Shown: piece after piece, positions 2,768 through 63,919 of the stretch
Layout of the letters: each line of letters starts with the position of its first letter
How positions within the stretch are numbered: the stretch's first letter is position 1
Source: a virus
Lineage: Duplodnaviria; Caudoviricetes
Virus record (IMG/VR): IMGVR_UViG_3300028549_000507
Location: 128,001 to 192,000 of that record
Length of the DNA stretch: 64,000 nt
Strand: one strand, 5' to 3'
Notes under the pieces: model-generated
Database searches by the model: none
What the model saw: the letters and a program-made list of their open reading frames with translations, nothing else
What the model was told of the DNA's origin: nothing
Translations under genes and position numbers: made by a program

Positions 2768-4357
2768 TTATTTCAAATGACATACGTAAAGTTTTGTAAC
2801 AAACTTAGACCCATTATCACCAGGTTTGTAGAATTGTACAAGAAGTGGAATATTCTTAGAAGCCATTTCTACCGTAGCAATGGCTGTATTCAAGGCAAAC
2901 CCTGCTCCAGCGTCACCAATAGCTACACCATTTGCAATAAGTTTAGATCCAAGATTACCATACGGCAATGTATACACATCGAAGTGTGTAGGAACTTTTT
3001 CTATACCATTAACAGATACTTTAGCAAATGTCGCGAAATCACTAATGCCATCGATCTTGTATACACCATTTGTGGTGGATATTTCTCCATAGATATTAGT
3101 CAATCCGCCCATAGCAATAACGTGTTTATTGGTACTAGTTTTACCAGTAAACGTATATGTCAAACGTTTATCAATAGTACCCATAACTCCGAGTTTGAAA
3201 TCACTTATAATAGGAGTTGCCAAGTTATTAACAATTGCCGATGTAGAAGCATCCGCAACTTTACAAGATGTAACTTCATACGAATTACCATTATCATCGG
3301 TAGCCCAATATTTCTTAGAAATAGTTGTAACACTATTTGTATTTGGGGTGAAATATATTGGAGTTATAACCGGATTAGGTACAGTCAGATCGTCTATAAC
3401 ATGAAGTTTTACAGTCTTACTAACAAAATTAGTTCCAGCAGGATTATATGTAAATGTAAGTAAGAACGGATTATCGCCTGTAATACTTGTAGTATTAATG
3501 GTATCAATTCCGGCATTAGTGCCATTCACTTTTATAGTCAATTTACTTCCAAGAGTATTTGTAACATCAACAACTTGTCCGCCATTATATTTAGCCATAA
3601 CCATAAATGTAATATCATTTATAGATGCACCTTTGAATAATTTAGCATCACCATTAGCAGTTGTACTAGATGGAGTTACAAGGAGTTCAGTGATACCATC
3701 GCCAATATCGCCTCCAGCATAATAAAGCATATATTCAGCATGGAATACATCTCTATCAATTAGACGCTTAGACTCATCATAGAATTCTACAATATATGTA
3801 TCACCATCATTAAGAGTTTTATTTGGGAGAATAAAACCTGGATTAGGCTTCATAACAATCTGATTTGATGACGGAGTTGTTCCCATAGGAATAGGAGTTC
3901 CGCCAGAATTCAGAAGATATCCGCCCATAGATACGATATTCGTAGTAACTACACCATTATCAATTACTCCTGTAATATACCCACTCCCATCACGAATTGC
4001 ATAATACTTATACGTATGAGGGTATACCAAGTTCTTATTGAAATTAACAGTCTTATTTACATTATCAAAAAGAAAATAAGTCAATTCTTTACTAATCAAG
4101 CCTGCACTAGCATTGTCGATTACACCAGTATTTTCCAATTGTCCAAGTAGATCGGTTACAGCTTTAGATTCACTAACGAACTCCCAAACTCCCGTATCTT
4201 TATAAACAATTCTACCAATAGAACCAGTACCTTCGTCATCATATACAATTTCATTATCATAAGGAATTATCGCATCGACAGCCGTAAATAGGGATAAAGG
4301 CGTAACGATAAATACCGGTCTACCTCTTTTAGCGGGGTTAACACTATTCATTATCAA
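2768..4357 (-). CDS. Putative baseplate/virion structural protein
   Basis: 529 aa; LNDGDTYIVEFYD segment resembles conserved phiKZ-like virion proteins; Thr/Gly-rich beta C-terminus; overlaps the upstream gene by 4 nt. Confidence 0.6.
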   Translation of the reverse strand: MIMNSVNPAKRGRPVFIVTPLSLFTAVDAIIPYDNEIVYDDEGTGSIGRIVYKDTGVWEFVSESKAVTDLLGQLENTGVIDNASAGLISKELTYFLFDNVNKTVNFNKNLVYPHTYKYYAIRDGSGYITGVIDNGVVTTNIVSMGGYLLNSGGTPIPMGTTPSSNQIVMKPNPGFILPNKTLNDGDTYIVEFYDESKRLIDRDVFHAEYMLYYAGGDIGDGITELLVTPSSTTANGDAKLFKGASINDITFMVMAKYNGGQVVDVTNTLGSKLTIKVNGTNAGIDTINTTSITGDNPFLLTFTYNPAGTNFVSKTVKLHVIDDLTVPNPVITPIYFTPNTNSVTTISKKYWATDDNGNSYEVTSCKVADASTSAIVNNLATPIISDFKLGVMGTIDKRLTYTFTGKTSTNKHVIAMGGLTNIYGEISTTNGVYKIDGISDFATFAKVSVNGIEKVPTHFDVYTLPYGNLGSKLIANGVAIGDAGAGFALNTAIATVEMASKNIPLLVQFYKPGDNGSKFVTKLYVCHLK

Positions 4358-7464: not shown

Positions 7465-8472
7465 TTACTTGGAGTTTGAGAATACTGTCAAAAGAGCATC
7501 CACAATATTATCAACCTGACTTTTAATAGCCTTTGAGATAAATTTATCATTATAAAACCCAATAGGCACAGTTAGTATCATATTCATAAATGAGGTAGAA
7601 TGTTCAATAGAAAACCATGAATTTGCACCATACATCTTCTGCCACAGGTTTGCAACAAGTCGAATATTGAATGTACCTTCACGAATATAATCACTAAACT
7701 CATAAGCATAAACTTCTAAGAATTCTGTAAGAGTTTCGAACTGCAATTTACCTTCTCTAAGTAGCTTACAGTCGCCTTCAATACTAGCTCTATCAGATAT
7801 TCTTGATGAGAATACTATATTTTTAGCATCTTCAATACTATATCCGAAGAAAGTTTTCAAGCAAAATACTGCAGATAGGAATAGTGATACAGAGAATACA
7901 TCAGAGTTTGCTGATATAGGGTATGCTCTATCGATACATTTTGAAAAAAGTCTAGAATATGCTATAGCAGTATTCTTAACAATGACTCCAGATTTATCTA
8001 TAATAGCTTCATTCTTCTTACAATTAGCATCAACATATGCGAATTGTAGAAGTGAATACAGTTCTACTTCTTTAATCTTGAGAGATTCTACATTTTTCAT
8101 AGTATCTCTTGTATATCTCGCTCTAGAAGATAGATCAACATATCCCACAATACCTCCAGGAGTACTGAATGTGGGGATTGTTGTTGTAAGGATTATAGGT
8201 CTATCCTTCAAATCCTTAGGCTCTACAAGAAGAAGTGGTTTAATAGTTTCTTCTAATGCAGCCTTTACAATAAGTCTACTAAGCGGGTACTTATACGATC
8301 TCATAGCTTTTACCATGAAATCATAGTGTTTACTTTCTATAGTATATTTATCTACACTCTGAGATATGTCAACAAGGGTTCGCATGAGTGACCCTTTGAA
8401 GCTTGCGTCCGCTAATTTGAATAGCTCACATGAACTTAATTTATTCAAAACTTCCTCCAAATTTATTAACAT
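7465..8472 (-). CDS. Hypothetical protein (likely late/virion)
   Basis: 335-aa ORF heading the structural operon, directly downstream of a late-type promoter. Confidence 0.6.
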   Translation of the reverse strand: MLINLEEVLNKLSSCELFKLADASFKGSLMRTLVDISQSVDKYTIESKHYDFMVKAMRSYKYPLSRLIVKAALEETIKPLLLVEPKDLKDRPIILTTTIPTFSTPGGIVGYVDLSSRARYTRDTMKNVESLKIKEVELYSLLQFAYVDANCKKNEAIIDKSGVIVKNTAIAYSRLFSKCIDRAYPISANSDVFSVSLFLSAVFCLKTFFGYSIEDAKNIVFSSRISDRASIEGDCKLLREGKLQFETLTEFLEVYAYEFSDYIREGTFNIRLVANLWQKMYGANSWFSIEHSTSFMNMILTVPIGFYNDKFISKAIKSQVDNIVDALLTVFSNSK

Positions 8473-8564: not shown

Positions 8565-10352
8565 CTAAGCGCCTAGAAACTCATTAAGGTTCCAGATATC
8601 TTCAGGATCATAGTTGAATGTCTTATTATTTTTATCAAGAGAATCATAGAAATCTCTTGAAGTTATAATTTTGGTTTTATCAACTTTACTTTCATTAATA
8701 TGTTCAATTCTATCATAATTAACTTCTGTATCATTGAAATATCCATCTACTTTACATTTCTTATCGATTTCTCGAACAGTTTTGATAGCGATGAATTTCT
8801 TATAATTGAATGGAAACTTAATACTACTTTGAATCTCACTAAGAGGTTTGAACTTATGTTCACCAATAGCGATAGGCTTATACGCTTTATCAAAGAATGA
8901 TCTTAAGAAACTGTATTCATCTTTAATAAGTGCCATATTAGAATTGTAATATCCACCAGATCTATCGAGGATAAGTTTAGAAGGTCTAAATCCTTCTTTA
9001 AATGCCTCGATAACACAGAGTTCTTTAGGAGCATATACATTCAATACGTCTCCGTCAAAGTCTCCGTTAAATTCAACAAGTGAATTATGCTGGATAGTTA
9101 GAATATTATTTTTAGCATCTTTAAATACATCTGCTACTCTTAAGCACTGAATAGATCCTAGGTCGAAAGATGGGTTTCTGTTAACGATTACCCAGATTCC
9201 GTCATCTCGTCTATTATGTACAAGCTTATAAATAATATCAAAGATAAATGGATCAACCTCTTCAGAATACTTACATTTATTAACATACACTCGACATTCG
9301 GGCGTAGTCATATTTGCAAATATAGGGTTACCAATACCTTTAAGCATACAATTTATAATTTCAAGTTCAAACATTCCCATAAAACACTTATAAGACATTT
9401 TCACAGAATCAATGTCGTCTATATCTGTTTCGGAAACGATAACCATTCGACTACTATACCAAACTCGACCAGAAATAATACTACTTCTAATCAACTTTTC
9501 CTTACCAATTAATCTAGAGATAGTCAACTCATAGATCTGCATAAGGTTTCTTTGGATAGTACCGAGTATCTCCATAGCTTTAATACCCACACGATCTCCT
9601 TTTTTAACCAATCTAATATTTGCAATAATCGATATAAGTATCGCATTAATATTATGGAAATTGAAAGATACGTTTTTAGTGGAAATAAATCCTGGTCTAT
9701 GGGCTGGACTCATTACATAAATCTTACTTGAAAAAGTAATATTACGTCTATCCATAAGTATCTGATAAAGCTCTGGTTTGGTTGTTGACTGTTTGAAGTA
9801 TTCCAATACTTCAACATATCGACGTTCAAATTCCATCATACCAATCCCTTTAAAAGGATTCGCGACATCCTTTTTGAATGTGTCGGGATCTGAAGTATCA
9901 AGGTGAATAATCTCATCGATTATAAATGAACGTTTTCTCTTACCAATGTAAGCTTTAATCTTGTGATAAATTGATGGAATGATTATTTTATATTCCAACA
10001 AGTCAATCCACCCTCTACGGAGTAACTCAACGGAATATTTAATCTCAACTACAGAAGAACAATCAGGGCACGTCTGACCTTCGTTATATCTTCCTATAAG
10101 TTTCCCACAATCACAAGAGTATTCGATAATTTTATTATCAGTTTCAACTGGAATATTGAATCTTGGGTCAAATACACTATTGTTATTCGGCTTCATGACG
10201 TTCTCTCGGATAACATCCGAACTTTCCATCATGATCGGATTGCCCAATTCCAAGTCTTTTTGATATTCTCTTTCCCAGTCAGAATGATCCATTCTATAAA
10301 CTGTTCGCGCTATAGAATAGTCGCGTCTAGTTAATTTACTTAAGTCAATCAA
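8565..10352 (-). CDS. rpoC: Phage multisubunit RNA polymerase beta-prime subunit, N-terminal part including the catalytic loop
   Basis: Zn finger YSCDCG...TCPDC, SGRVWYSSRMVI, VIVNRNPSF and EFNGDFDGD motifs; TTG start with GGAGGG RBS. Virion versus non-virion enzyme cannot be fixed from sequence alone. Confidence 0.95.
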   Translation of the reverse strand: MIDLSKLTRRDYSIARTVYRMDHSDWEREYQKDLELGNPIMMESSDVIRENVMKPNNNSVFDPRFNIPVETDNKIIEYSCDCGKLIGRYNEGQTCPDCSSVVEIKYSVELLRRGWIDLLEYKIIIPSIYHKIKAYIGKRKRSFIIDEIIHLDTSDPDTFKKDVANPFKGIGMMEFERRYVEVLEYFKQSTTKPELYQILMDRRNITFSSKIYVMSPAHRPGFISTKNVSFNFHNINAILISIIANIRLVKKGDRVGIKAMEILGTIQRNLMQIYELTISRLIGKEKLIRSSIISGRVWYSSRMVIVSETDIDDIDSVKMSYKCFMGMFELEIINCMLKGIGNPIFANMTTPECRVYVNKCKYSEEVDPFIFDIIYKLVHNRRDDGIWVIVNRNPSFDLGSIQCLRVADVFKDAKNNILTIQHNSLVEFNGDFDGDVLNVYAPKELCVIEAFKEGFRPSKLILDRSGGYYNSNMALIKDEYSFLRSFFDKAYKPIAIGEHKFKPLSEIQSSIKFPFNYKKFIAIKTVREIDKKCKVDGYFNDTEVNYDRIEHINESKVDKTKIITSRDFYDSLDKNNKTFNYDPEDIWNLNEFLGA

Positions 10353-10370
10353 ACTGCCCTCCGTTTATAT

Positions 10371-10405
10371 AAAAAGAAAAAGAGGTTCCCATAAAGGGAA
10401 CCTCT
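10371..10405 (-). terminator. Intrinsic terminator between the FG/MG-tail gene and beta-prime
   Basis: AGAGGTTCCC/GGGAACCTCT stem followed on the minus strand by TTTTTCTTTTT. Confidence 0.8.
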
Positions 10406-26317: not shown

Positions 26318-26329
26318 CATTAACTTGTT
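26318..26329 (-). promoter_or_regulatory. Late-type promoter AACA-N6-TR
   Basis: Minus strand AACA AGTTAA TG upstream of the early-type site. Confidence 0.5.
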
Positions 26330-37340: not shown

Positions 37341-37368
37341 AAAATAAACGGAGGGAATAATTCCCTCC
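37341..37368 (-). terminator. Intrinsic terminator after the DHFR-like gene
   Basis: Minus strand GGAGGGAA-TTA-TTCCCTCC-GTTTATTTT. Confidence 0.75.
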
Positions 37369-37377
37369 ACATATAAC

Positions 37378-50183: not shown

Positions 50184-50591
50184 ATGTCTAAAGAAAAAAC
50201 GTTTCAGTTGGGAGCACTCGTCCAAGTTGAAGGACTTCTTCAGAAAGTAAGAAGTTCATCAAAATCTCTTCCAGGCTCTGTAGTTTTGGATCTCAGAGAC
50301 TCAGTTGAGGTTATTGAAAAACTTATCAATAACTTCAAAACTCTTAGAGAAGAAAAGATTACAGAACTTGGAAAAACTAATGAGGAAGATGGAAGTATCT
50401 CTATTGATAAAGAGTCTCCAGAGTTCCAGGTTATGGTTGAATTCGTTGCGGAAACTCTTAACAAAGAAGTTACTTATACTATCGTTAATCCGGTAAATAT
50501 TCGTGCACTCGCTGTTGCAAAAGAGCTTCCTTTCGATATCGATGAACTCGATGCGCTTGTTGATCTTGGAATCCTTTCGGACGACAAGTAA
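50184..50591 (+). CDS. Small acidic protein after the tail fibre (DUF1617-like; possible fibre chaperone)
   Basis: GGAGGG RBS before ATG at 50184; helical with acidic C-terminus; family call by resemblance only. Confidence 0.5.
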   Translation: MSKEKTFQLGALVQVEGLLQKVRSSSKSLPGSVVLDLRDSVEVIEKLINNFKTLREEKITELGKTNEEDGSISIDKESPEFQVMVEFVAETLNKEVTYTIVNPVNIRALAVAKELPFDIDELDALVDLGILSDDK

Positions 50592-58698: not shown

Positions 58699-59138
58699 AC
58701 TACTACATGATTAAGTACTTCTAAACACTCTTTACCTTTATACAACTTGATGATATCATAAGGTCTACTACCATAGAGTCTTATATATTCTATGAGATGA
58801 ACTATCATTTCATCAGTCATATCATCCATCAATTCGAAAGAATCTTTCCAAATTCCATCAGAATCTCGTTCATATGAATCATATAACTCATCGTCTGGAT
58901 CCGAACTAATGTTTTCAAACTTATCATAATCTTTAATACAAATTACTGGGGCTGGTGGTGATATAAAGGTCATAGTGTCATGTAATGTCATTATACTACA
59001 ACTATACCTATCGAATATAATCTGGTCAAATTCTCCATCTTCATTTAACGGAATCACATCTTTAGATAGAGATTTCAATAAATCTAATCTGTAATCACTT
59101 TCATCTGGCTCAAAGTACTCATTAGTTACACCCATCAT
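58692..59138 (-). CDS. Hypothetical acidic protein
   Basis: 148 aa; AAGGAG RBS. Confidence 0.7.
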   Translation of the reverse strand: MMGVTNEYFEPDESDYRLDLLKSLSKDVIPLNEDGEFDQIIFDRYSCSIMTLHDTMTFISPPAPVICIKDYDKFENISSDPDDELYDSYERDSDGIWKDSFELMDDMTDEMIVHLIEYIRLYGSRPYDIIKLYKGKECLEVLNHVVVC

Positions 59139-59292
59139 CAGTCTCCTTTAAAATTTTCAAATAGATTATCCAATTAACTATATAGTTAAATGGTAAATAA
59201 AATAAATACTCAACTAAATCCCAACCCGTAGGACGTTCTTTCCACTCTATGACATCTTTAATAACCGTAAATATTGACGGGAACTTATACAT
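59122..59292 (-). CDS. Small unlisted ORF (56 aa, hydrophobic C-half)
   Basis: Hand translation MYKFPSIFTVIKDVIEWKERPTGWDLVEYLFYLPFNYIVNWIIYLKILKETDDGCN; AGGAGAG RBS; below the track's 60-aa cutoff. Confidence 0.65.
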   Translation of the reverse strand: MYKFPSIFTVIKDVIEWKERPTGWDLVEYLFYLPFNYIVNWIIYLKILKETDDGCN

Positions 59293-59382: not shown

Positions 59383-59456
59383 TATCCCAAATATGACTCG
59401 AACATATACTCCCCGACTTAGAAGGTCGGTGCTTTATCCAATTAAGCTATTGGGAC
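59383..59456 (-). tRNA. tRNA-Arg (UCU)
   Basis: Cloverleaf: GTCCCAA/TTGGGAT acceptor, GCTT/AAGC D-stem, CCGAC-CTTCTAA-GTCGG anticodon arm, ATATG-TTCGAGT-CATAT T-arm; no encoded CCA. Confidence 0.92.
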
Positions 59457-60178: not shown

Positions 60179-60198
60179 TGAAATTAAAAAAAAAGGTA

Positions 60199-60272
60199 TG
60201 GGCTGTCCGGAACTCGAATCCGGAACATACCGCTTATGAGACGGATTTTCTAACCGATTGAAATAACAGCCC
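60199..60272 (-). tRNA. tRNA with CAU anticodon, probably Ile2 (lysidine type)
   Basis: GGGCTGT/ACAGCCC acceptor, CTCATAA loop, CCGGA-TTCGAGT-TCCGG T-arm; carries C4-G69, U12-A23, C29-G41 and A73, and lacks initiator features. Confidence 0.85.
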
Positions 60273-60288
60273 ATATTAAATTATTTTA

Positions 60289-61248: not shown

Positions 61249-62025
61249 CTAGACTCTGGTTTTTGATAAATAGTTTTTAACTTTTACTAAATCTGCGGCA
61301 ACAGTCGGGTCAACCATTATAACATTTGATAAGAAATCACTCAATTGATCAGGAGCCTGGTTATTAAATTCCGAATCGGAAACGATATTGTAAAAATCGA
61401 TACTATTCAATTTTGACTTATCAGTTATATATTTCCAATATGTATATATAATACTTTCAGAAGCACCCATTCTACGAAGATTCTCATTCATCCTAATACC
61501 AAAGACTTTCTTACAATCACCAGATCTAATCTTAGATAACTGATGTTCATTATACCATCCTTGTATATTTTTCATGATCTCATTTTCCATACTAGAAAAG
61601 TCGACATCAATACATATCGCAGTATGATTATGCTCAACAGTATGTAGTATAAATCTACCATCAATATCATGAGAATATACAAGTTTATATTTCAAGTAGA
61701 ATCTATTATTAAACTGATTGTAGGTTTCGTAAGTTAACCTGTCAAATTTCCCAAGATATGATACGAGCATATCATAATCATCGAGATCTTCTTTAGTAAC
61801 CATTACGATGTCATCAAAAATAACACCTTCCGGTGAGATTTTTCCAAATAAAATACCGACTTCAGTAAGAATCGATACGTTATGATGGATATCGAACAAT
61901 CTAATTTTACAAGTATCACCATGTAGCGAAATACCATAATTAGACAATATCGATCGGAACTCTCCATGTGAGTTTGCACTTAAGAACTCACATATTGGAT
62001 TTGATTTAAATGTTAAGTATTGCAT
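61249..62025 (-). CDS. Hypothetical protein
   Basis: 258 aa; AGGAGGAG RBS; early-type promoter upstream. Confidence 0.75.
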   Translation of the reverse strand: MQYLTFKSNPICEFLSANSHGEFRSILSNYGISLHGDTCKIRLFDIHHNVSILTEVGILFGKISPEGVIFDDIVMVTKEDLDDYDMLVSYLGKFDRLTYETYNQFNNRFYLKYKLVYSHDIDGRFILHTVEHNHTAICIDVDFSSMENEIMKNIQGWYNEHQLSKIRSGDCKKVFGIRMNENLRRMGASESIIYTYWKYITDKSKLNSIDFYNIVSDSEFNNQAPDQLSDFLSNVIMVDPTVAADLVKVKNYLSKTRV

Positions 62026-62083
62026 TGAATACTCTCCTCCTGTTAGGTTTAGTGAAGAAATCTACTCAGATAACCTCAGTATT

Positions 62084-62099
62084 ATATATATAATTAAAA
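62084..62099 (-). promoter_or_regulatory. Putative early-type promoter
   Basis: Minus strand TTTTAATTATATATAT. Confidence 0.55.
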
Positions 62100-62233
62100 T
62101 AAACATTAAATATCTAGGGAAATTAATCCCCAGATATTTAATATAGGAGAGCAACAGTTAAGATGTCTTACAATAAACGGAGGGAAAATTGTAAGACAAA
62201 TTTGATAGGTAAAATAAGGGCAGTCTACTTATC
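62096..62233 (-). ncRNA. Candidate trans-acting small RNA with anti-Shine-Dalgarno loops
   Basis: Late-type promoter at 62233-62244, three hairpins, terminator with a minus-strand-specific G-U pair, no translatable ORF; two loops complementary to the beta-prime RBS. Confidence 0.55.
62105..62142 (-). terminator. Terminator hairpin of the candidate sRNA / DnaB transcript
   Basis: Minus strand ATTAAATATCT-GGGGA...TCCCT-AGATATTTAAT then GTTTATTTT. Confidence 0.75.
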
Positions 62234-62244
62234 ATTATTATGTT
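62233..62244 (-). promoter_or_regulatory. Late-type promoter AACA-N6-TR immediately after the DnaB stop
   Basis: Minus strand AACA TAATAA TG. Confidence 0.55.
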
Positions 62245-62245
62245 A

Positions 62246-63919
62246 TTATACAAGATCGTCGCTCGAGAATATAGCATTAGCTTGAACAGATTCAGTATTA
62301 GATCTAAGATTATTCTTAGTTCCACCTCTATTAAAACGAATCTCTTTACTTCTAACAGTATTATTATCATTACTCACACCGGCAGTTTCAGCAATAGAAT
62401 CTACTGATAGAGATTTATTTCCTAGTAAATCATCTGTAAGATAGAATCTATTTACCAATTGGTGAGCAAAGTATTCTACAGGAGTTCTTTTATATCGACA
62501 TTTACCTTTCTTAAATCCTAAGAAAGATTCTCCAGTATATATAGAAACTTCTGGAGCAATATATAGCGAGAAGTCAATAGCGTCTTCAACACCATGTGCT
62601 TCTGTTAAATGCTGTCTACCAAGTCCTTTAACTTTATCAACACCACCACGTTCTTCAACATCTGTAAGTAATTTATCACCATCTCTGTTTGTATGGTGAG
62701 CCGTAACAAGAACCATCTCAGGTCTCATTGCAACAATCTCATGCAAATCGGTAGCGATATTAATAGTTTTAACACGAGGATCTGGATTTGCCAAATCATC
62801 TCGCATAATTCTCATATAGTCAACAATAGTAGCAATAACAACACACCCTCTTGATTCCAACTCATCGATTCGATACTCTAAATCAGATGGACTAAATCTT
62901 CCGGCTTTACCATAGATCATACAAATATCTACAATAGAATTTGTACTATATACAGATTGTTTCCATAGATCTTCGGCTTCTTCAAGAGTATTTATCTCGC
63001 CCATATTTTTCTTAACATACATAGAGAAAAGGCGCTCAGTATTTTCATCCCAAGTATTTTCAAGAGATACCACTAATACGGTAGGTCTCTTACCATTCTC
63101 CTTATATTTTTCAAGATACAGATGACCGTTATACAATTGTATCCATTTTGCAATGTACAATAGTAGACCAGTTTTAAATGAGTTAGTAGGTGCATTTACG
63201 ACATACATCTTACCAGTTAAGAATCCACCCTCATCACTCAGAAATTCATTAAATTTCTTCAACCCAGTCCTTAGTGCTCTAGTTTTTCTTTTAGACATTT
63301 TAAATACCGTCTTAAAGAATTTTGTACTAAAGTCAGGATCATTAATGGATACCGGTTCAGATGTATTCAATCCATCATTACTCAATGTCTTATGGAGCTT
63401 CATATGTAGTTCGGCAATTTGTTTTTCAAACTCATCAACTACAGTATTGATACCATTAACACTTCCAGATTCAATATTTCTAAATGACTCAACAATAGAA
63501 TCCTGATAGTCCAAAATAAAACCGATTTTAGAATACGTAGAAACCACGTTCAGTATCATAGAAATCTCTTGATCCGGCATCAAAACTTTACCGATAATTA
63601 TAGGTTCTATCATACCTTTGATAGTTTCTTCATTATCAGCATTAGATATACTCGCTTCGATTAGACTTGTTATAAGATGATTATCTTTCACATCATCAAA
63701 TTTACAATTTATAGTCATCTCAAGAGCTTTTAAGATAGAGAATACTTCTGGATCTTTTGAATAATATTGAATGTCAATCATTTTCAAAAGAGTATGAATC
63801 ATCGTTAACTTAGAAGAACTAAGTTCTCCATGAACAATAATCTTCAATAAAGCTAGTAGGAATCTACTATTTACAACTGTCGGGATTTTAAGAAGCTTCT
63901 TTTTAGGTTTCTTAAACAT
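62246..63919 (-). CDS. dnaB: DnaB-like (SF4) replicative helicase
   Basis: NAPTNSFKT Walker A, VVSLEN, TIVDYMRIM Walker B, VTAHHTNR and VEDAID motifs; helical N-terminal domain. Confidence 0.9.
   Translation of the reverse strand: MFKKPKKKLLKIPTVVNSRFLLALLKIIVHGELSSSKLTMIHTLLKMIDIQYYSKDPEVFSILKALEMTINCKFDDVKDNHLITSLIEASISNADNEETIKGMIEPIIIGKVLMPDQEISMILNVVSTYSKIGFILDYQDSIVESFRNIESGSVNGINTVVDEFEKQIAELHMKLHKTLSNDGLNTSEPVSINDPDFSTKFFKTVFKMSKRKTRALRTGLKKFNEFLSDEGGFLTGKMYVVNAPTNSFKTGLLLYIAKWIQLYNGHLYLEKYKENGKRPTVLVVSLENTWDENTERLFSMYVKKNMGEINTLEEAEDLWKQSVYSTNSIVDICMIYGKAGRFSPSDLEYRIDELESRGCVVIATIVDYMRIMRDDLANPDPRVKTINIATDLHEIVAMRPEMVLVTAHHTNRDGDKLLTDVEERGGVDKVKGLGRQHLTEAHGVEDAIDFSLYIAPEVSIYTGESFLGFKKGKCRYKRTPVEYFAHQLVNRFYLTDDLLGNKSLSVDSIAETAGVSNDNNTVRSKEIRFNRGGTKNNLRSNTESVQANAIFSSDDLV

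Follow-up and report, generated by a model that had tools for sequence, protein, structure and literature searches.

A candidate regulatory RNA unit behind the replicative helicase gene of an uncultivated AR9/PBS1-like jumbo phage

What is encoded in the 220-bp gap (62026-62245) that separates the gene of a divergent DnaB-like replicative helicase (62246-63919, minus strand; Pfam divDNAB PF20307, 2e-29, and PF03796) from the next gene, an open reading frame (ORF) of 258 amino acids (aa)? This question was raised by a window of 64,000 nucleotides (nt), the whole stretch of DNA analysed here, which corresponds to bases 128001-192000 of a 200,251-bp IMG/VR viral contig (33% GC; CheckV completeness 72%). 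A sequence-only reading of the window had placed in this gap a late small RNA (sRNA) that shuts off the synthesis of beta-prime, a subunit of the phage's own RNA polymerase (RNAP). The evidence given below points to a phage-encoded candidate regulatory RNA, whose layout recurs across a clade of uncultivated jumbo phages. The locus offers a cleanly bounded, selection-constrained RNA together with a concrete target hypothesis.

A late-type promoter, a predicted folded RNA and a terminator

Directly after the helicase stop codon (TAA, 62248-62246 on the minus strand) lies AACATAATAATG (62233-62244, minus strand), which consists of AACA (62244-62241), six further bases and TG (62234-62233). According to the AR9 transcriptome study, which used differential RNA sequencing (dRNA-seq) and primer extension, the late promoters of phage AR9 share the consensus AACA-N6-T(A/G), the final base being the transcription start site (PMC5312081). 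These promoters are recognised by the non-virion RNAP (nvRNAP) of AR9 (PMC5449584). AACATAATAATG fits this consensus, including the predicted start base, the G at 62233 that is its last base. The late-type promoter that had been noticed here from the letters alone is backed by the distribution of the motif: genome-wide, 46 of the 87 copies of AACA-N6-TG are intergenic while intergenic DNA makes up 6.6% of the genome (p = 3e-31), and nearly all the intergenic copies lie 35-50 nt upstream of a start codon on the same strand. Control patterns with a shifted tetranucleotide or an altered spacing are intergenic in only 0-7% of cases. AACA-N6-TG is a genuine promoter motif in this genome. It should be stressed that the label "late" rests on the analogy with AR9, because PHROG annotation identified just one virion structural protein (7465-8472) behind AACA promoters; none of nine large proteins submitted to PHROG annotation was matched.

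Transcription from this promoter would give a predicted non-coding RNA of about 138-140 nt (62094-62233, minus strand), recognised by its fold, its terminator and its lack of an ORF led by a Shine-Dalgarno (SD) sequence. The minus-strand RNA 62233-62094 has a minimum free energy (MFE) of -39.5 kcal/mol (z = -8.8) and comprises three hairpin elements, in line with the earlier prediction of a three-hairpin RNA of about 135 nt. Hairpin 1 (62204-62233, minus strand) is weak, alternative pairings being possible; its loop holds UAGACUGCCCUU (62216-62227), a 12-mer that costs 1.1 kcal/mol to open and is identical in the relative L003 (see below). Hairpin 2 (62164-62198, minus strand) has a perfect 11-bp stem and a 13-nt loop with CCCUCC. 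The opening of its anti-SD 12-mer (62173-62184) costs 3.0 kcal/mol because two stem pairs must break. As hairpin 2 is not followed by a U-tract, it is not a terminator. A single-stranded linker (62144-62163, minus strand), unpaired in both the MFE and the centroid folds, carries a third anti-SD stretch, GCUCUCCUA (62144-62152), whose opening energy is 0.5 kcal/mol. For the unpaired C-rich motifs, CCCUCC of loop 2 and CUCUCCU of the linker, opening energies range from 0.4 to 3.0 kcal/mol. The unit is closed by an intrinsic terminator (62094-62144, minus strand) made of an 18-pair stem, a 6-nt loop and a T-rich tail; two terminator-like sites were counted, against 0.2 expected from shuffles.

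The minus-strand RNA unit has no credible, SD-led ORF. A 25-codon frame whose ATG straddles the start site was considered and rejected, since no SD stands before it and the first two bases of its ATG precede the predicted 5' end of the RNA. In Rfam, no family passed the gathering score with the RNA locus, E values up to 10 brought nothing but noise, and eight related loci had no match either.

Past the terminator, 65 nt before the 258-aa gene, stands TATATATAAT (62081-62090, minus strand), a promoter-like sequence of early type. It resembles the early promoters of AR9, for which the transcriptome study gives the consensus AAATATATATTAT-N6-G (PMC5312081). Genome-wide, 10 of the 18 copies of the TATATATAAT motif are intergenic, several of them 48-65 nt upstream of start codons. 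The order of the locus is thus a late promoter, an ORF-free RNA of about 138 nt, a terminator, an early-type promoter and the next gene. The other late promoters of the genome are located after terminators, 35-50 nt before start codons, and this usual placement means that the promoter-terminator unit found here argues for a short product. Furthermore, one gene is served by promoters of both types (late and early, at 26329 and 26292) without a terminator between the two. We consider it very probable that a discrete, ORF-less transcription unit exists on the minus strand.

The terminator also tells the two strands apart, as had been pointed out before: the sole mismatch of its stem is a G-U pair on the minus strand, whereas the plus strand reads A-C. 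This bears on an alternative already raised in the sequence-only reading, a plus-strand RNA whose GGA/GGAGGG loops would serve as a sponge for a CsrA-type protein. The plus strand of the region does fold well, if less strongly than the minus strand (z = -5.6), and it presents GGAGGG in a loop. However, it has neither an AACA-type promoter nor a U-tract, TATATATAAT read on the plus strand has no G six bases downstream, the A-C mismatch falls in the terminator stem, and a transcript of this strand would continue into the helicase gene in antisense orientation. We regard this sponge as extremely improbable.

Selection on the unit and its recurrence in related phages

Divergence was measured between the window and its closest relative (L003/L004), whose helicase protein is 99% identical. 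The late promoter and the RNA differ from L003 at 2 of 156 positions (1.3%). The helicase coding sequence (CDS) is 5.0% divergent, 75 of its 84 changes falling in third codon positions (13.5% of those sites). Nucleotide divergence reaches 7.3% in the 258-aa CDS, 11.9% in the small CDS that follows it, and 7.4% in the 68 nt that lead from the terminator to the next gene. The low divergence of the RNA unit has a p value of 0.005 against the average of its flanks and of 5e-8 against third codon positions. One of the two changes affects the extreme 3' end of the unit; the other, 62197 G to A, is uncompensated and weakens the base of the hairpin 2 stem. Between the window and L003, no change falls in the promoter, in either loop or in the linker. 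This comparison argues that the RNA unit is under purifying selection at the nucleotide level. The constrained unit ends at the terminator, since divergence is 1.3% before it and 7.4% after it.

This boundary bears on the main rival explanation, according to which transcription from the late promoter would pass the terminator in a regulated manner, as in the lambda PR'-6S RNA-tR' unit, the RNA being a cis-acting leader. Such a gate would add late transcription of the downstream genes, and the linker may hide the ribosome-binding site (RBS) of the next gene on the read-through RNA. For instance, when the whole gap is folded, the MFE structure has the linker sequence GCUCUCCU paired with AGGAGAGU, the RBS of the next gene. 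In the same way, the AR9 study reports long 5' untranslated regions (UTRs; up to 491 nt) and some genes with both early and late promoters (PMC5312081). Read-through seems to be used elsewhere in the phage, since the beta-prime gene too has a terminator right before its RBS, and another late-promoter unit, at about -4365, ends in a terminator that directly precedes a 790-aa gene without any further promoter. Terminator hairpins directly precede at least two promoterless genes, so that terminators may be leaky for this polymerase, and this speaks against a free-standing RNA. Against the gate, it can be argued that the downstream gene owns an early-type promoter past the terminator, in the window as well as in all relatives, and that sequence constraint ends at the terminator. 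The other dual-promoter gene has no terminator between its promoters, and no antiterminator alternative fold was seen. We hold a read-through gate to be possible although unlikely, and the same judgement applies to a leader that hides the next RBS.

The unit at about -4365 (window coordinates, minus strand; L054, G000:C1:123300-123800; genome position about 123,450-123,640) is of interest by itself. Its late promoter, AACAATTTATTG, is followed by an ORF-free stretch of about 150 nt that is strongly folded (MFE -54.5 for 179 nt) and that ends in a strong terminator, about 30 nt short of the SD of the 790-aa gene. This unit is a candidate leader or gate, or a candidate second non-coding RNA.

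Further relatives were gathered as helicase homologues at 44-72% identity, which gave loci from about ten further lineages. In six of these lineages (L005, L006, L009, L011, L013 and L019), AACA-N6-T(A/G) stands at the helicase stop or just past it, an arrangement with a chance probability of about 2e-8. In all six, the promoter is followed by 190-290 nt without credible ORF, by a strong intrinsic terminator and then by a TATATA-type motif. Seven of the nine bodies that were folded, that of the window included, exceed dinucleotide shuffles in structure (z from -2.2 to -7.3). Other loci depart from this layout: L008 has a terminator alone at the position of the helicase stop, the AACA motif is absent from L007 and L020, and more distant relatives (helicase identity of 48% or less) have no comparable gap after the helicase gene.

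Two results from these lineages weigh against a regulatory RNA that works through its anti-SD stretches. The RNA bodies share no alignable sequence, only the promoter and short subgroup motifs being common to them. Furthermore, free CCUCC, seen in four related bodies, is only weakly enriched against the intergenic background (p = 0.08), the value against the whole-genome rate being p = 0.006. Sequence comparison thus shows a slot that is conserved together with its signals and is occupied by a fast-evolving RNA.

Some subgroup features of the post-helicase regions can be mentioned. TTGTAA(A/T)GCGTAGCAC is common to the ORF-free regions of L007 (~3290-3310), L013 (~3600-3620) and L020 (~1530-1550), and CGTAGAACATT is common to those of L009 and L011. 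In L007, which lacks the AACA promoter, a near-perfect hairpin of about 38 bp (L007:3125-3205) comes straight after the helicase stop.

A promoter that is conserved across lineages in front of a body of variable sequence could also betray a DNA-level or R-loop element, that is, a promoter-primed replication origin by the helicase gene, for which transcription would matter and not the sequence of the RNA. T4 oriF and oriG and the T7 origins are examples of promoter-primed origins. The locus adjoins the replicative helicase gene, and an AT-rich stretch follows the terminator, as would suit an origin. However, GC skew tracks gene orientation and shows no inflection at the locus, and the strong conservation of the body between the two close strains is more than an unwinding element would require. 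Moreover, the strong terminator would release the RNA, and AR9 is without such a gap after its helicase gene. An origin at this place is very improbable.

The beta-prime gene as a putative target

The explanation that we prefer is a free-standing non-coding RNA gene whose product acts in trans by masking RBSs; it is advanced tentatively, its chances being somewhat short of even. The phage's own AR9-type nvRNAP would start transcription at G 62233 of AACATAATAATG and be halted about 138 nt further on by the intrinsic terminator. The RNA would then expose three pyrimidine-rich or C-rich anti-SD-like stretches, one in each of the loops of hairpins 1 and 2 and one in the linker, and these would pair in trans with translation-initiation regions and keep ribosomes from binding. 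Of all genes of the phage, the strongest candidate for a target would be that of the N-terminal part of the nvRNAP beta-prime subunit (beta-prime-N), since both loops together could cover its SD and its UUG start. As AACA promoters are read by the nvRNAP, repression of beta-prime would close a negative feedback loop, the late polymerase thereby repressing its own synthesis. We infer from sequence all four elements of this scheme, namely accumulation of the RNA, action in trans, RBS masking and relevance of beta-prime.

The gene in question (8565-10352, minus strand) matches Pfam RNA_pol_Rpb1_2, and its best named match is AR9 g270, which is annotated as the N-terminal beta-prime subunit of the nvRNAP. 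The matching nvRNAP is represented in the phage by this g270-like subunit. The proposed target, made of the SD GGAGGG and the UUG start (10350-10368, minus strand), has an opening energy of 2.1-4.6 kcal/mol. Both pairings described in the sequence-only reading were recovered exactly. Thus, 62173-62184 in hairpin 2 is the exact complement of 10357-10368 (-18.6 kcal/mol for the 12-mer duplex), and this 12-mer has just three occurrences in the 200-kb genome. The loop of hairpin 1 (62216-62227) pairs with 10350-10361, UUG included, over 12 contiguous positions of which three are G-U (-17.6 kcal/mol), the duplex being built from 8 contiguous Watson-Crick pairs plus G-U-containing extensions.

When the start regions of the genome are ranked by hybridisation energy, beta-prime comes first of 169 for loop 1 (-19.5 kcal/mol, z about -4.3) as well as for loop 2 (-19.6 kcal/mol, z about -3.7). 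A two-site sum was also calculated, in which two non-overlapping windows of the RNA are paired with one start region. This sum is -41.1 on beta-prime, and the best of about 82 valid natural controls reaches -38.4; the controls were other intergenic regions and random genome pieces, four lower values being excluded as trivial cis-antisense. The two-site coincidence on beta-prime stands out, whereas the single sites are within background.

Several results weigh against beta-prime as the target. The first rank that had been expected for it holds for hybridisation energy and is lost once accessibility is included: beta-prime then comes second of 169 at -14.5 kcal/mol, behind the start region of a 56-aa ORF (59122-59292) reached through the linker (-14.9), and other intergenic regions attain -13.7 against some start region. 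The linker motif CUCUCCU matches many GGAGAG ribosome-binding sites, and the start regions of 59122-59292 and 50184-50591 are alternative candidate targets. Random 140-nt pieces of the genome ordinarily reach single-window hybrid energies near -20 as well. The two target sites share 5 nt, so that both loops cannot fully pair simultaneously; a split pairing across all 19 target nt has a net energy about equal to that of one site.

The nature of the matching sequence also speaks against a specific interaction. The terminators of this phage, in which GGAGGG/CCCTCC stems are common, usually have CCCUCC and then U-rich sequence as their 3' half, and complementarity would be generic because CCCUCC plus U-rich sequence mirrors the A-rich-GGAGGG ribosome-binding sites. 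For example, the 15-nt sequence TTCCCTCCGTTTATT, which covers the loop and 3' arm of hairpin 2 (62172-62186), recurs identically in the 3' arm and tail of the terminator at 37343-37372, between the DHFR gene and the following gene, as the sequence-only reading had warned. A base-composition estimate gives about 4e-4 further copies expected by chance, and the identity points to a single origin of the two copies or to a terminator template used by both.

Related phages were expected to keep the match between the loops and beta-prime, and this expectation was contradicted. Beta-prime loci were paired with helicase loci by sample, an assumption that gave three pairs (L049/L011, L050/L006 and L051/L009). 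In these three relatives, the beta-prime leaders differ from that of the window, and the RNA region of the same lineage pairs with each leader no better than foreign RNA regions do. The window's own pair of RNA and leader is a clear outlier, at -27.6 against -14.5 to -21.4. The helicase contigs of the relatives do not carry beta-prime. Exact-pattern scans of viral contigs for the 19-mer of the beta-prime leader and the core of hairpin 2 found neither, and single-protein scans of viral contigs gave no matches. The beta-prime feedback is a lineage-specific hypothesis, the match being not common to related phages.

Such results could be accommodated by a plainer explanation, in which the gap holds the ordinary 3' UTR or terminator of the helicase operon with a chance late promoter, the complementarity to beta-prime being a coincidence between a terminator arm and the RBS that it mirrors. 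The 15-mer in common with the terminator at 37343, the several GGAGGG/CCCTCC terminator stems, the single-site energies inside the control range, the loss of the beta-prime match in relatives and the lone terminator of L008 would all agree with it. However, purifying selection spans all 156 nt, both loops and the linker included, and the promoter at the stop codon is kept in six further lineages (p about 2e-8). Furthermore, the two-site match beats every valid control, and hairpin 2, which is devoid of U-tract, is no terminator. An ordinary 3' region is therefore considered improbable.

As regards the trans-acting RNA, the feedback proposed in the sequence-only reading stood in part: the ORF-less unit, the anti-SD loops and a coherent target speak for it, and the second rank with accessibility and the relatives without match speak against it. 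Beta-prime is a doubtful main target. The most complete statement, in which an RNA made late by the nvRNAP clamps the SD and UUG of its own beta-prime-N gene as RNA-based negative feedback, the post-helicase unit being a fast-evolving regulatory RNA slot, seems rather unlikely.

The beta-prime gene shows a further particularity. It is preceded by a strong terminator hairpin (10370-10405, minus strand), about 10 nt before its SD, and no recognisable promoter lies between them. Of four further beta-prime loci (L026, L049, L050 and L051), L049 and L050 have the same succession of terminator and RBS upstream of position 1501, while L051 is without it. Expression of beta-prime may depend on terminator read-through.

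Known systems and genomic surroundings

By analogy of mechanism, the closest known system would be the c4 antisense RNA of phages P1 and P7, followed by the sRNAs with C-rich loops of Firmicutes. In c4, two short exposed segments pair with adjacent sites of a phage mRNA, cover the RBS and block translation. PMC8198154, which cites Citron and Schuster (1990), presents c4 as an antisense repressor of ant expression. Like c4, the RNA described here has two exposed segments that match adjacent sites across an RBS. However, it has no match to RF01695 in sequence or structure. Furthermore, c4 is cut from the operon of its target in a temperate phage, whereas the putative target lies 52 kb away here, in a presumably lytic jumbo phage, and the RNA unit comes with an AR9-type promoter and a terminator of its own.

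In the same way as RsaE/RoxS and RNAIII, the predicted RNA has several unpaired C-rich motifs in loops and linker, complementary to SDs of the GGAGG type, together with its own promoter, an intrinsic terminator and about three hairpins. It differs from them in having no Rfam match, in being phage-encoded and in its motifs, which are CCCUCC and CUCUCCU and not CCCC or UCCC. Its complementarity to beta-prime is neither kept nor co-varying in the three sample-paired relatives.

The late units of AR9 share with this one the promoter consensus and the start base, and the g270-like nvRNAP subunit is common to both phages. However, the gap after the AR9 helicase gene is just 10 nt long, and the helicases are only about 30% identical. 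The lambda PR'-6S RNA-tR' arrangement also combines a promoter, a strong terminator within about 140-200 nt and a short RNA. Unlike in the lambda gate, the next gene has its own promoter past the terminator, no equivalent of Q or qut is known and the RNA body is constrained. To our knowledge, small RNAs have not been reported from the AR9/PBS1-like group. The available text of the AR9 transcriptome paper deals with mRNA units and antisense RNAs, and an ORF-less terminated unit was not found in it (PMC5312081). In ΦKZ, a dRNA-seq study predicted one sRNA, which could not be confirmed, and called sRNA function in lytic phages "less obvious" (PMC8244752).

The AR9/PBS1-like group, with its two phage-encoded multisubunit RNAPs, is a model for non-canonical transcription. 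The present locus shows that the AR9 late promoter code reaches distant uncultivated relatives from microbial mats, and this code offers a means of finding ORF-less transcription units in metagenomic phage genomes. If true, feedback on the nvRNAP would be a new layer in the timing of jumbo-phage gene expression.

The phage itself is a distant, uncultivated relative of the AR9/PBS1-like jumbo phages. No more than 25-30% identity links its helicase to the helicases of AR9, Listeria phage LPJP1 and the Staphylococcus jumbo phages, and nucleotide comparison with known phages gave neither a near nor a distant match. The DNA runs that contain it come from microbial-mat metagenomes, and no RNA run was among the runs listed as containing it. 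Downstream of the RNA, the 258-aa ORF (61249-62025, minus strand) has its own SD, GGAGGAGAG, in addition to its early-type promoter; its function is not assigned, Pfam and PHROG searches with the protein being without match. Farther downstream are genes of a tRNA-Arg(UCU) (59383-59456) and a tRNA-Met(CAU) (60198-60273), both on the minus strand and surrounded by small ORFs and by an ORF for a GmrSD_C-like nuclease.

Two other late-promoter sites lie outside the window on the minus strand. At -60868 and -60946 (window coordinates), a late promoter has, about 45 nt downstream of it, a hairpin plus a T10 tract; the gene is served by a second late promoter at this site, the first making up a minimal promoter-terminator unit. 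At 71859, past the end of the window, an AACA-N6-TG promoter opens a 53-nt 5' UTR that carries the anti-SD stretch ACCCUCCGUAAAU upstream of the gene's RBS, and this stretch may be an anti-SD element acting in cis.

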